From the NCBI GenBank assembly GCA_038231435.1, contig JBBRLJ010000002.1:32001-96000 (forward strand): DNA of 64,000 bases, read 5' to 3'. This DNA comes from Planctomycetota bacterium (GTDB lineage Bacteria; Planctomycetota; UBA11346). The position numbers and the translations under genes are program-made. Below are positions 7,570-13,778 of this stretch, piece by piece; the stretch's first letter is position 1; each line of letters starts with the position of its first letter. The notes beneath the pieces were generated by a model. That model saw only the letters and a program-made list of their open reading frames with translations, ran no database searches and had not been told where the DNA came from.

Positions 7570-8406
7570 ATGCGCCACGCCAATCCCGTCTCGATCCTCT
7601 CCCCGGCATTTTTCACGGCCTGCGCGAGCGCCTTCCTGCTCACGCTCGCGGACGAGGCCCGCTCGGCCGACGGCGCGTCGACCGACTACTGGGTGCGGGT
7701 GATGCCAGCGCTGTGGGCGGCGCAGCTCGACGGTGACTTCAGCTACCAGCGCGGAGGATCGTCTGGATCGCGCTTCACCACCGACCAGCTCGGCATCGAT
7801 GGCGCCAAGAACATCTTCGCCATCGAGGCCGGCGCGCAGATCCCGTTCCTGTTCGGCTTCCATGCTGGTTACTTCGACTTCTCGACCGAAGGCACGCGCC
7901 CTCTGACCCAGACGCAGACCTTCGGCAACCAGACCTACGCGGCCACCACCCAGGTGAAGACCACCGTGGGGCTGCGCGACCTGTACGGCGAGATCTGCAT
8001 CCGCCCGCTCAACCTCGACCTCGTCGGCTTCAGCGTCGGCGTCGCGGGACACTCCATCGATGGCCGCATGGAGCTGGCCGACCTCACCACCGGCAATTCC
8101 GATTCGATCGAGAAGACGGTGTTCATCCCCGCCGTGGCGGTGCGCGGGCACGTCAGCCCGCTGAAGTGCTTGACGCTCGAAGCGCGCGTGCACTGGATCG
8201 AGATCGCCACCGGCGGCAACCACGTGCGTTTCGCGGATGCCGATGTCCAGCTCGCCTACCGTCCGATCGAGTGGGTGGGCGTGCTCGCCGGATACCGTTA
8301 CAATCTCTACGACCTCCATCTCAAGGATCCTACCGGCACCAACTCGTCGGCCGACCTCAACCTGTCCCTCAGCGGCCCGTACGTCGGGTTGATCGCGAAA
8401 TTCTGA
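7570..8406 (+). CDS. Outer-membrane beta-barrel protein
   Basis: Signal peptide, alternating beta-strand pattern, terminal GPYVGLIAKF. Confidence 0.8.
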   Translation: MRHANPVSILSPAFFTACASAFLLTLADEARSADGASTDYWVRVMPALWAAQLDGDFSYQRGGSSGSRFTTDQLGIDGAKNIFAIEAGAQIPFLFGFHAGYFDFSTEGTRPLTQTQTFGNQTYAATTQVKTTVGLRDLYGEICIRPLNLDLVGFSVGVAGHSIDGRMELADLTTGNSDSIEKTVFIPAVAVRGHVSPLKCLTLEARVHWIEIATGGNHVRFADADVQLAYRPIEWVGVLAGYRYNLYDLHLKDPTGTNSSADLNLSLSGPYVGLIAKF

Positions 8407-9107: not shown

Positions 9108-9546
9108 TGCGCGGGCTCCGCCCCCGGGCCCCCGCGCACCTTTGTCGCCCCTCTTTTTCGCCGAGGGCGCAAAAGTTTGCGTGATGGGCTACGCCCATTG
9201 TTCACGCACAACGGAGCTCGGCGGTCGATTGGGGGCTTCGCCCCCCAGACACGCGTCACCGCCTGCATGAGCCTGTCGTTTCGCAGCCCGATCGAGTCAT
9301 CGTCTCAGATCGCTCCGCATCGCGTGAGCCCTGGCTGGAGCCCATCATGCAACATTCGCCGCCCGGCGGCGAATGAGATGAGCGACAAAGGTCAGGGGGG
9401 ACCGGCGAGGCGTAAGACCCGCCCGACCGCCTAGCTCCGGTTTGCGTGAACAATGGGCGAAGCCCATCACGCAAACTCTTTCGCCGCCCGGCGGCGAAAG
9501 AGAGGCGCGACAAAGGTCGCGGGGGACCGGGGGCAGAGCCCCCGCA
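9108..9546. repeat. Mosaic of subtype-B structured repeats: one forward copy and two reverse copies
   Basis: ~9108-9249 and ~9421-9546 are inverted copies sharing CTTTGTCG and TTTGCGTGATGGGC(N3)GCCCATTGTTCACGCA; a degenerate third copy lies at ~9322-9405. Confidence 0.9.
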
Positions 9547-9550
9547 CCAA

Positions 9551-9832
9551 TTAAGGCATTTCCCGATTCTTGGCGCGCCGATGGGTGATGCGGATCACCA
9601 GCGTGTTCGAGACGTGCTCCGCAACCGTCAGCAGCGGGTTGGGGTCCCAGGGTTCCACCACCGCCGTCGCCGCGCAGGTCTCCACGCGCTCGATCATCTC
9701 GAGGCCGCGGATGCGCTCGGATTCCCCGAGCTGGCGGATGTTGGTCAGGCGCCAGCCGCGTTCGTCGTACTCGAAGCGGATCCCGTCCGGGGCAACGAAT
9801 TCGACAAGATGGACGTGGCGGTACTTGCGCAT
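9551..9832 (-). CDS. Hypothetical protein (93 aa)
   Basis: Follows the receiver gene after 7 nt; coding-like codon usage. Confidence 0.7.
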   Translation of the reverse strand: MRKYRHVHLVEFVAPDGIRFEYDERGWRLTNIRQLGESERIRGLEMIERVETCAATAVVEPWDPNPLLTVAEHVSNTLVIRITHRRAKNREMP

Positions 9833-9839
9833 GGCAGGC

Positions 9840-10226
9840 TCAGTTCTTGGCGGAGACGGCCGCGGCGGCCTGGAGGATGACCGCGCGCAGCTTCTCCGGA
9901 GTGCATGGCTTGCACAGGTAGTGGTCAGTCAGTGGAGCCGCGGGCTTGAGGAAATGCCCCGCGTCGATCATGCCCGACAAGGCGATGCGGGCGATGCGCG
10001 GATAGCGGGCCTGGACGATGGCCAGGAAACGCACGCCATTCATCCCGCCCATGAGCATGTCCGAAACCACCACATCGATGTCCTCGCGATGCAGCACCTG
10101 CAGCGCCTGTTCGGCGCTGGTCGACAGGTGGACGGTCCACTCCGGCTCCTTGAGGCGCAGGATGCGGAAATGCGCGAGGATGGAGTTCGGCTCATCGTCG
10201 ACGAAGAGGATGCTGAGACCGGCCAT
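9840..10226 (-). CDS. Single-domain response regulator
   Basis: ILFVDDE, VVSDMLM, ALSG, LCKPC. Confidence 0.9.
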   Translation of the reverse strand: MAGLSILFVDDEPNSILAHFRILRLKEPEWTVHLSTSAEQALQVLHREDIDVVVSDMLMGGMNGVRFLAIVQARYPRIARIALSGMIDAGHFLKPAAPLTDHYLCKPCTPEKLRAVILQAAAAVSAKN

Positions 10227-10280: not shown

Positions 10281-10544
10281 TCACAAACGATGCCCGCCGC
10301 TTACCTCCAGCACAGCGACTTTACCTGGACGTTTGTCCGGTGTCGGCTGTCCGCACCACGTCCAGCGGCCGGCCGGATCGCACTTCCAATCCGGATCTGC
10401 GGTGGGCTTGTCGCTGCGCGTGATCGCCATCTGGCTTCCGGGTTCGCCGTCCGGATCTGGGATCACCATCACATACCAGGTCTCCGGCTTGCCCCCTTCG
10501 GGAGTGAAGATGATCCAATGGGTTGGTGACCATTTTGGCCGCAT
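10281..10544 (-). CDS. Stand-alone copy of an uncharacterised Trp-rich 'WxxTH' domain
   Basis: WSPTHWIIFTPEGGKPETWYVM...WKCDPAGRWTWCGQPTP; aligns with three other copies nearby. Confidence 0.8.
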   Translation of the reverse strand: MRPKWSPTHWIIFTPEGGKPETWYVMVIPDPDGEPGSQMAITRSDKPTADPDWKCDPAGRWTWCGQPTPDKRPGKVAVLEVSGGHRL

Positions 10545-10687
10545 GTCCCGACGATATCTCGGCTCCGCGGTTGCGCAGTTCCGAGCAGCGCTGATCGGCG
10601 CAGCCGTCCGTCACACGACTGGCCTTCACTCCGCCCTTCGTCACGCAGGAATCACGAATCCGGACCAGAACCAGGGCCGACCCGAGG

Positions 10688-11299
10688 CTAATGGGGCATC
10701 TCGTCGATGGCGACCTTGCCGCGCTCGCCCTCGGGCGTGCGCAATCCCCGGCAGGTCCACACCCCATCGGGCGTGCAATGCCATGCGGGCGTCACTCCAG
10801 CCGCCCATTCGGAATGGGTCAACGCCACGCGATGGCCGTAGGGCGCCGGACCGATCATCACCAGCCAGTTCTCAGGGCGACCCTTGTCAGGCGTGAAGGT
10901 GATGCGGTGGGTCGGAGTCCACGACGCCGTGATCTCCGGATTGCGCGCCATCGCGCCGCGCCAATCGTCTTCGGCGAGGCGAGGCGTGGAGCGCGGAGAC
11001 AGTTCCTGCAAGCGCGGAGACGAGCGAGGGGATGGCTCGCCGACAATGCGGGAGGCGCGCGGCGACGGATCCGGCAGGCGCGGCGACGAGCGCGGCGTAT
11101 GGCGTTCGGTCTGGGGCGGGAGGGCCGCCGGCCGTAGCGCGGACGCACCGAGGGCTTGGCCCGAGAGGGACTCGAGCAGGCGGCGCTGGCGCTCGAGCGC
11201 ATCACCGAGGCGCGCGATGCGCCGCGTCGATAGCAGGTGCAACAGCACCATGAGCGAGGCGAGGAACACCAGCGCCGCGATCGTGATCACCAGCTGCAT
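10688..11299 (-). CDS. Membrane-anchored protein: TM helix, SPR-repeat linker, WxxTH domain
   Basis: MQLVITIAALVFLASLMVLL TM segment, GGAG RBS, repeated [ST]PR, C-terminal WTPTHRITFTP domain. Confidence 0.8.
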   Translation of the reverse strand: MQLVITIAALVFLASLMVLLHLLSTRRIARLGDALERQRRLLESLSGQALGASALRPAALPPQTERHTPRSSPRLPDPSPRASRIVGEPSPRSSPRLQELSPRSTPRLAEDDWRGAMARNPEITASWTPTHRITFTPDKGRPENWLVMIGPAPYGHRVALTHSEWAAGVTPAWHCTPDGVWTCRGLRTPEGERGKVAIDEMPH

Positions 11300-11487
11300 G
11301 GCGGGCTCCGGTCCATCATCGCATCCATCAACATCACTATCAGCATATCCATTCGCCCATGATGGCACCCGCGTGGCCCGCGGCCAGGGCGGCGTGGGCG
11401 AAGCCTCCCGCGTGCTTTATGTCAGCGGCCGTCCAACGGCCGAACATTGGCCGAACATTGGCCGCCAGTTGCAGGACACTAGCCGTG

Positions 11488-12204
11488 CTATTCGCGCTTG
11501 CCCTCGTCGAGCATGCGCGCCACCTCCATCAGCAGCCCCTGCATCGATCCGCTCAGGGTCTTCTGGTCAGCGGCGGGAGCGCCGGCGTGGAAGGCGAAGC
11601 GCTTGGGCGGATTCGTGGCCATGGCGATCAGCGCCTCGAGCCCGAGACGGGCGCCGCTGAACGCGTGGACCGGAGTCCCACCCACGAACCACACCGCCGA
11701 CAGGTTCGATCCGCCGGTGAGATCGAGTCGGCCGGTCTTGAGCGTGACGTTGAAGTACTGCAGCAAGTCGAGCACGCCATCCGAGGTCACATCGCCAACG
11801 AAGTTGGCGCCCTTGCTGACGATGTCCTGGACGTTGAAGTCGGGGCCCATCGTCTCCTCGTCGGCGATCTGCGGAGCGTTCGCCAACGCCGCGGGATCTG
11901 CGCCGGGGGGGAACAGCTGGAAGCGGAATACCTGCCCGCCGACCTGGATCTTGGCGCCGTCGGCGACGCGCGTGGGCGCGGTGATCTTCTTGCCGTTGAC
12001 CAGCACCCCATTGCGACTCTCGAGATCGCGCATCTCCCAGTGGCCGGCCGGGGTCCACGCCAGTTCCGCGTGCCGGCGCGAGATCAGGGCGTCCTGGATC
12101 GGGATGTCGGCCTTCTCGTCGCGACCGAATACATACGAGCGGCCAGTGCGGAGCTTGTGCAGCCTGCGGGCCGCCGAGACGAGGTAGTAATCGGCGGTGG
12201 CCAT
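11488..12204 (-). CDS. FHA domain plus DUF4388 (PatA-N-like) protein
   Basis: FHA motifs FGR, SRRH, SRNG..VNG; C-terminal LDLLQY...KTGRLDL...LLMEVARMLDE typical of DUF4388. Confidence 0.88.
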   Translation of the reverse strand: MATADYYLVSAARRLHKLRTGRSYVFGRDEKADIPIQDALISRRHAELAWTPAGHWEMRDLESRNGVLVNGKKITAPTRVADGAKIQVGGQVFRFQLFPPGADPAALANAPQIADEETMGPDFNVQDIVSKGANFVGDVTSDGVLDLLQYFNVTLKTGRLDLTGGSNLSAVWFVGGTPVHAFSGARLGLEALIAMATNPPKRFAFHAGAPAADQKTLSGSMQGLLMEVARMLDEGKRE

Positions 12205-12295
12205 GGGCTCGTCGACACCGTAACCCCGCGTACGAGGCAGCGCAAGCCGGCACAGAGCTTGATCATGATGGTCTCGGCGTTTCCGAGGAGACGTC

Positions 12296-12850
12296 CTAGC
12301 GCTGGCGCGCGTCGCGGTCGTCGGCGGCCGCTTGCGTCGGATAGGCGCCGCTCACCTCTTCGACATGGACCGAGCCGGGGGTGTCCTTCGGCGTCGCCAT
12401 CCCCTTCCACGTCCAGTCCCCTTGGGGACTGCAGCTCCACTCAGGCGGGCACTGGGCGAACCATTCCTCGTGCGTCATCGCCGCCCAATGGCCAGGTCGG
12501 TAGGCGTCGGGCCTGGCCATCACCATCCACCAGCGCGGCTGGCCCTCGCTCGGATAGAACGTGATGCGATGGGTGGCGCTCCACTCCATCTTCTTGAAGC
12601 CGCCGCTGGTCTCCTTCACCGTCAGCAGTCCCTGGCGGTCGCCCGGCGTGTGCACGCCATCGCAGGTCCAGGTGCCGTCGATGGTGCAGGCCCATGAGCC
12701 AGGAGCGCTCTTGAGCCACTCGTCACGCGTATGCGCGCGGCGGATGCCCTCGTCGTCGGGCATGGCCGCCAACATGACCACCCAGGTTTCGGGCGGGCCG
12801 GCCTGGGGCGTGAAGGTCAGATAATGCGTGGCGCTCCAGGGTCTAGCCAT
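12296..12850 (-). CDS. Protein with two tandem WxxTH domains
   Basis: WSATHYLTFTP... and WSATHRITFYP... repeats; start could be 12868. Confidence 0.8.
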   Translation of the reverse strand: MARPWSATHYLTFTPQAGPPETWVVMLAAMPDDEGIRRAHTRDEWLKSAPGSWACTIDGTWTCDGVHTPGDRQGLLTVKETSGGFKKMEWSATHRITFYPSEGQPRWWMVMARPDAYRPGHWAAMTHEEWFAQCPPEWSCSPQGDWTWKGMATPKDTPGSVHVEEVSGAYPTQAAADDRDARQR

Positions 12851-12959
12851 GAGGAGCAGCATCGACATGGGAGCCCGCGTTCCAAGCCCGTCCCGGGATC
12901 CGCTCCCGACGTGCGCGATACGCCGCGCGCCGGGAGCGAGACCACTAGCTCCTCCCGAC

Positions 12960-13778
12960 TCACCGCACCCAGGTCCTGGTGGGAGAGCCGGTTCCGGGTC
13001 CGACCATGATACCGTCATCGCCGGCCGGATCGTAGATGTCGTCGGCGGTCGCTCCGCTGGCGTCCGGATTCAGGTACTGCCACGTCGCGATGGCCGAGCC
13101 GTCGAGATTGGCAGTCGCCCCCACCGGCGCGCCAGCCAGGCGCGGCAGCTTTCCGGTATGCCCATCGAAGAAGCACGCGACCGCGAGCTTCTTGTGCGCG
13201 AGATTCGCCACGCCGCGATCGGCCAGCACCACGCGCATCGAACTGGCATTCGACGGCACCGACCAGTCGTAGGCGTAGGCCGGAGAGTGGCTGAGGTTGC
13301 CGCCAGGTCCGGTGACGGCGTTGGTCCAGGCCGAGATCGCCGGTCCGGCGACGTCGAGCGTGGGCTCGGGCGCGAGCGTGGGCCGGTAGTGGGGTTCGGA
13401 TGGGCAGCTGAAGAGCTGGCGAGGCAGCTCGCCCATCTGGGTCGCAAGGAATTCGAAGCTGCCAATGGTGGTCGCGAACGCGAGCGGCGTCGGATTGGCG
13501 GCATCCTGCGAACCGTCAGCCTTGGTCGCGCGCACCGGCCAGATGCCTTCGTTCTGATTGGCGTAGACCATCATCGCCATCGCGATCTGGCGCTGGTTGC
13601 TCGCGCACTTCGTCTGATTCGCCAGCTCCCTCACCAGGTTGATGGCGGGGATGAGCATACCGGCGAGGATCGAGATGATCGAGATCACCACCAGCAACTC
13701 GATGAGGGTGAAACCCGAGCGGGCCCTGCCCTGGGGCCGAGGCCTGGTGGATGGGTGACGGATGGTTGGATGGTTCAT
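12960..13778 (-). CDS. Prepilin-type N-methylation / DUF1559-like (H-X9-DG-CTERM) protein
   Basis: GFTLIELLVVISII, CASNQRQI, H...FFDGH. Confidence 0.88.
   Translation of the reverse strand: MNHPTIRHPSTRPRPQGRARSGFTLIELLVVISIISILAGMLIPAINLVRELANQTKCASNQRQIAMAMMVYANQNEGIWPVRATKADGSQDAANPTPLAFATTIGSFEFLATQMGELPRQLFSCPSEPHYRPTLAPEPTLDVAGPAISAWTNAVTGPGGNLSHSPAYAYDWSVPSNASSMRVVLADRGVANLAHKKLAVACFFDGHTGKLPRLAGAPVGATANLDGSAIATWQYLNPDASGATADDIYDPAGDDGIMVGPGTGSPTRTWVR

Follow-up and report, generated by a model that had tools for sequence, protein, structure and literature searches.

A Tryptophan-Rich Domain Family Shared by Planctomycetes and Phages, and the Possible Recruitment of an FHA-PATAN Protein by Its Membrane-Anchored Form

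FHA domains require phosphothreonine (pThr) and bind pTxx[I/L/V] or pTxx[E/D] sequences (PMC8786283), with GR, SRxH, and SxNG serving as the canonical recognition motifs (PMC8339232). DUF4388 is the PATAN domain, which 10.1101/2021.06.11.447907 presents as a protein-binding output domain that acts on the type IV pilus motor and binds PilB1 in Synechocystis. Literature searches that left most subscription journals and supplements outside their reach yielded no paper combining DUF4388 with FHA, and none combining Planctomycetota, a novel domain, and a tryptophan-rich composition. Here we analyze a window of 64,000 nt from a Planctomycetota bacterium (assembly GCA_038231435.1, contig JBBRLJ010000002.1, positions 32,001 to 96,000), in which a Trp-rich domain of about 80 residues occurs four times around a gene joining an FHA domain to DUF4388. 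We are nearly certain that this domain is real and that it is undescribed in the libraries searched. More tentatively, we propose that such domains, which are shared with phages, might act as non-enzymatic protein-docking modules, and that the membrane-anchored copy might recruit the FHA-PATAN protein through its linker.

A Trp-Rich Domain in Three Architectures

The four Trp-rich segments are found on the minus strand in three open reading frames (ORFs), as judged from the window ORF translations. As a previous reading of the sequence alone had described, they are co-oriented, take three architectures, and bracket the FHA-DUF4388 gene. The locus comprises the following genes:

9840..10226 (minus strand): single-domain receiver (REC) gene, identified by Pfam, separated by 54 bp from the stand-alone copy, on its downstream side
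10281..10544 (minus strand): stand-alone domain protein, 87 aa, of a diverged subfamily lacking the E-W helix motif
10688..11299 (minus strand): protein of 203 aa comprising a hydrophobic helix at its N terminus, basic residues, an S/T-P-R linker, and a C-terminal domain (10691-10927)
11488..12204 (minus strand): FHA-DUF4388 (PATAN) protein, 238 aa, between the domain genes, with Pfam matches to FHA (E 2e-18) and DUF4388 (E 1e-10), both above the Pfam cut-offs
12296..12868 (minus strand): tandem two-domain protein, 190 aa, whose start is possibly the Met at 12850

Position 12850, which the sequence-only reading took as the start of the tandem protein, is an internal Met that coincides with the start of the homologue P0009. 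The two domains of this protein lie at ~12602-12844 and ~12344-12592, each with an E-x-S-G-[GA]-[FY] tail behind it.

Alignment of the four copies reveals 23 invariant columns, in agreement with the earlier description, at a pairwise identity (40-46%) that is moderate rather than low. When a profile built from these copies was run against a six-frame translation of the 5.2-Mb genome (G000), it returned these four and no fifth copy (next match, E 0.06), and a homologous family was recovered more widely. The ratio of nonsynonymous to synonymous substitution (dN/dS) relative to genus-mates is 0.11, 0.11, and 0.18 for the three window genes, and the stand-alone gene has orthologues in G002 and G001 that are 82% and 76% identical to it. 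Because an independent family exists and dN/dS is this low, the likeness among the four copies is not due to chance, which bears out the view that they represent a folded domain under selection.

The domain could not be matched to any described family at first reading, and searches of Pfam, PHROG, NCBIfam, and fold libraries have not altered this. The window domain proteins match no Pfam family at E<=1, in a release that predates newer families such as PF26929, and their best matches in PHROG and NCBIfam have E values of 0.09 and 0.02. Among 80 family members, each Pfam family was matched by at most one member, and one PHROG was matched by a single member. The Pfam WW profile gave no match in either the window proteins or the family members. 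The domain is predicted to be all-β. In an AlphaFold model of the tandem protein (pLDDT 86.7, pTM 0.55), the two domains show no confident mutual packing, since linker residues 89-92 score below 50. Fold comparison produced no clear structural relative, as the Z scores of Tudor/SH3-like and EVH1/PH-like matches tie with those of unrelated barrels. An 80-aa family that lies outside the searched profile libraries and has no clear structural relative represents a compact target for structure determination.

Over 173 domains, the residues that are kept are mostly aromatic, glycine, proline, and β-core positions (W53 97%, W61 94%, G65 94%, P69 93%, V25 92%, A40 90%). Cys55 is present in 32% of these domains, its invariance being limited to the four window copies. 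On both grounds the domain is probably non-catalytic, and the catalysis by His and Cys that had been suggested for it is not upheld.

The Membrane-Anchored Form and Its FHA-PATAN Neighbor

Ten proteins of the transmembrane (TM) type share one layout, consisting of a helix, a set of basic residues behind it, and a linker of 75-100 residues made up of Pro/Arg/Ser/Thr repeats. The basic residues behind the helix predict, by the positive-inside rule, a cytoplasmic C terminus. Within the ten linkers, [ST]PR was observed 35 times versus 4.8 in shuffled sequences, T.R[ILVF] 8 times versus 1.2, and T..[ILV] 14 times versus 6.9 (14 of 2000 shuffles were as high; nine of the ten proteins carry it), although these figures overstate significance because the linkers are kin and repetitive. 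The S/T-P-R sequence resembles the sites of proline-directed kinases. Seven copies of [ST]PR occur in the window TM protein; a set of 3190 predicted proteins contains no other with more than three. One of its linker sequences, T105-P-R-L, matches TxxI/L/V and is a candidate pThr site. The window FHA domain, for its part, retains intact pThr-binding motifs in alignment (G27-R28, S42-R-R-H45, and S63-R-N65-G).

FHA-DUF4388 proteins occur as multiple paralogues here (window 11488-12204; L066-L072, L017), three of them full-length in G000. In seven of nine aligned paralogues, the sequence E-T-[MR]-G stands between FHA and DUF4388; by analogy it is a possible self-phosphosite switch, which we take to be comparable to that of GarA.

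Four relatives (G001, G002, G013, and G018) carry 11 copies of the domain at 10 loci; for seven of these, the sequence available on one side is shorter than 1 kb. The sole TM-type gene among these loci, in G002, is also the one with an FHA domain nearby, and this neighbor is again an FHA-DUF4388 gene. It is 26% identical to that of the window and lies downstream of the TM-type gene, whereas the window gene lies upstream. Both TM-type genes with readable neighbors (2/2) adjoin an FHA-DUF4388 gene, against a background of 1.3% for FHA within 2 kb in G000. The FHA link thus far holds up for the membrane-anchored form alone, in which it more likely operates through the linker than through the domain. 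Three same-source pairs of tandem and TM-type homologues on contigs of equal size (5663, 6061, and 4252) suggest that these two genes are co-located, and in a relative ~92% identical, from another study, contigs join tandem with FHA genes and TM-type with stand-alone and REC genes. A REC, histidine kinase, or cyclase gene lies within 2 kb of five of the 10 loci (two of them orthologous) versus a background of ~8%, for a class that was picked post hoc and with three profile seeds taken from those same loci. A conserved three-gene unit encoding a small acidic protein, the Trp-rich domain, and an ArsR-type regulator was also noted in G001 and G002 (L019:8082-9114 and L022:7774-8781), divergent from a PAS histidine kinase.

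The window itself contains no kinase domain. G000 as a whole has 84 Pkinase matches, the nearest ~57 kb from the locus, and about 70 REC matches. According to the mechanism that we favor over the alternatives, though at less than even odds, a kinase encoded elsewhere in the genome would phosphorylate the S/T-P-R linker of the anchored protein, and the FHA domain would bind a pThr-x-x-I/L/V site such as T105, thereby carrying the PATAN output domain to the membrane. The Trp-rich domain may bind a further protein partner, for which the soluble single and tandem versions could compete, or which they could bridge.

Distribution of the Family and Its Phage Members

A quick tree of the 173 domains (80 columns; weak and unrooted) was used to define two groups, with 64 rows in group I and 109 in group II (SH-aLRT 82). 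Group I takes in all 15 copies anchored in five planctomycete genomes. Each window copy falls within its own subfamily with support of 95-100, and the duplications are therefore old. The median net charge is -7 in group II, which is acidic, versus -1 in group I, and the motif [AG]Y[TSD]xx[ED] is present in 91 of 109 group II domains versus 4 of 64 in group I. Architectures across the family include stand-alone, tandem, TM-anchored, and REC-fused forms, along with many other N- and C-terminal fusions; 74 of 110 group II proteins have extensions at one end or the other. Many copies in group I close, immediately behind the domain, with E/D-x-S-G-[AG]-[HFY] (window 10281-10304, 12296-12350, and 12575-12601), which may be a phosphosite or a tail used in binding. 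Ahead of the Trp-rich domain, many proteins of group II have a second unannotated domain of ~80-90 aa (P0062, P0083, P0099, P0118, P0155, P0158, P0166, P0167, and P0169), and P0155 and P0166 additionally carry PF26929.

Three IMG/VR records (35-63 kb) represent two distinct phages, each of which carries one group II copy among small genes. Neighbors with PHROG matches include a helicase loader, a DNA methyltransferase, and MazG. A single query against 50,697 GenBank phage records and 72,556 plasmids gave no match. The domain is rare in cellular genomes. In searches that scored 12-14 candidates per genome, it was found in seven of 48 genomes of the order, two of these weakly, with none among seven high-quality genomes, and in two of 401 at the level of the phylum. 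Corresponding searches found it in one of 401 genomes from the phylum of a Myxococcota record and in none of 401 from that of an Acidobacteriota record. In the first of these phyla (genome G613), the domain lies at the end of a predicted lipoprotein (L086:1156-1905) whose middle part has no Pfam match and presumably resembles the C-terminal region of a pseudopilin. The notion of a lineage-specific domain is not supported, as 109 of the 173 domains belong to the second group, two phage genes among them, and Myxococcota also has a copy. We infer a phage origin for group II, few of whose proteins have a readable gene context. Phage entry followed by expansion in the planctomycete lineage is the likelier history, although the tree is unrooted.

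Several further features flank the locus. Downstream of the REC gene and co-oriented with it, window positions 9551-9832 (minus strand) encode a 93-aa protein of a second unannotated family, which lacks matches in Pfam, PHROG, and NCBIfam; of the 48 genomes searched in the order, 14 encode it. Between convergent genes at 9110-9548 is a palindromic intergenic repeat (inverted arms 9122-9242 and 9409-9533) that is REP- or MITE-like. Across the genome, sequence resembling it turns up in 89 one-kb bins, distributed over 48 contigs. The region is bordered on one side by an outer-membrane beta-barrel-like protein (7570-8406, plus strand), whose match to TIGR04219 falls below cut-off, and on the other by a prepilin-type N-methyl protein (12960-13778, minus strand).

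Alternative Explanations and Known Systems

A number of observations weigh against the proposed mechanism. Nine of the 10 relative loci have no FHA domain nearby, and the FHA link is known from two genomes of one genus, in a family whose cellular range is narrow. The probable G002 orthologue (64%) of the window FHA-DUF4388 gene and the G018 orthologue (43%) of the FHA-DUF4388 gene beside the G002 TM-type gene each lie on a contig from which the domain is absent, and different genes surround the orthologues of the stand-alone gene. Most linker repeats contain Ser, which is not an FHA ligand. The division between groups I and II carries an SH-aLRT of just 82, and the Myxococcota member, located at the end of a protein that by inspection has a lipoprotein-type signal, indicates that the domain is not confined to the cytoplasm. 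The general association with FHA and kinase genes anticipated from the sequence is not seen, given the single FHA-linked relative locus, the G002 orthologue on a domain-free contig, and the lack of a kinase in the window. What persists of the tie to Ser/Thr phospho-signaling is a signaling-flavored setting in this lineage and the FHA link of the anchored form, for which the suggested check of gene neighborhoods gave 2/2 at readable TM-type loci and 1/10 at relative loci overall.

One competing explanation, credible though somewhat unlikely, is that the domain, a phage accessory module binding some host protein, was kept and duplicated in this lineage for a role outside phospho-signaling, its FHA and REC neighbors merely reflecting a genome rich in scattered regulators. 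The two phages with the domain among small genes, its scarcity in cells, the scattering of copies in G001 and G002, the changing neighbors of orthologues, and the abundance of kinase and REC matches in G000 would all be expected under this explanation. It fits less well with the recurrence of an FHA-DUF4388 neighbor as a different paralogue, with the fusion of the Trp-rich domain to REC in P0151, with the highly unusual linker of the window protein, or with the enrichment of REC, histidine kinase, and cyclase genes, post hoc as that class is. The same fusion, together with the 38% identity between its REC and the window REC (the second best of six tblastn matches to it in the genome), raises the alternative that the true partner is the two-component system, with the domain serving single-domain receivers in an accessory or output capacity. 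Two G002 loci have REC genes 196 bp and 1052 bp away, and an orthologous pair of loci has histidine kinases at 0.9-1.4 kb. However, P0151 is the one such fusion among 160 listed proteins, stand-alone orthologues are not beside REC, and REC genes are common in the genome, such that we regard this alternative as the least probable of those considered.

The domain itself might instead work as a small enzyme or bind a small ligand, in either case through a His/Glu site, Thr8-His9 with Glu45 and Thr42, in place of the His/Cys site. These polar residues are strongly kept over the 173 domains (His9 98%, Thr8 91%, Glu45 89% with Asp in 8%, Thr42 80%) and could be catalytic or ligand-binding, which also counts against a docking function. 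Yet the stand-alone subfamily, in which Asp occurs and the Trp after it is missing, is under purifying selection; tandem, TM-tethered, and REC-fused forms suit a binding module; and no enzyme is prominent among the fold matches. We therefore judge such an activity improbable. It is hardly more probable that the domain is a Tudor/SH3- or WW-like reader whose aromatic surface binds nucleic acid or peptides rich in Arg or Pro, among which the S-P-R repeats of the TM partner are a possibility, with phosphorylation as the switch.

The docking proposal can be extended to a more ambitious scheme, which we consider unlikely. A new-fold protein-binding domain would have been captured from phages, expanded in a kinase-rich planctomycete lineage, and built into a membrane-tethered phospho-scaffold, whose proline-directed S/T-P-R repeat would have the FHA-PATAN adaptor as its reader. 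The Trp-rich domain might read it as well, as a bacterial counterpart of readers of the WW/Pin1 type. If the favored mechanism itself holds, a phage-shared domain would have been recruited into host phospho-signaling, FHA-PATAN proteins would have a first input, and a testable substrate-reader pair for proline-directed Ser/Thr phosphorylation would be at hand in a bacterium with >80 kinase domains, the signaling tie coming from two genomes.

The Trp-rich domain differs from Tudor/SH3-like, EVH1/PH-like, and WW domains in having no sequence match to them and no distinguishing Z score, and from the WW domain also in its six strands and its 80 residues, about twice the size of a WW domain. Like the PATAN outputs PatA and PixE, the window protein has a DUF4388 domain above the Pfam cut-off, but its input is FHA rather than REC. 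As in the phage and plasmid polyvalent and early conflict proteins described in PMC5512222, a small domain is shuffled across architectures and occurs in phage small-gene regions; unlike those proteins, most members are 70-300 aa rather than large and multidomain, and no Pfam or PHROG family covers the domain. Another parallel is FHA-pThr signaling as represented by Mycobacterium Rv1747 and GarA, with which the locus shares the GR, SRxH, and SxNG motifs and a Thr/Ser-rich linker that looks unstructured and contains TxxI/L/V sites. It departs from these systems in lacking a local kinase or phosphatase, in its PATAN output, in its mostly Ser-Pro-Arg repeats, and in the undescribed domain borne by its scaffold. 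The system that we envisage would be a variant of FHA/pThr scaffolding, which is already known in kind, whereas the domain itself constitutes an undescribed family.
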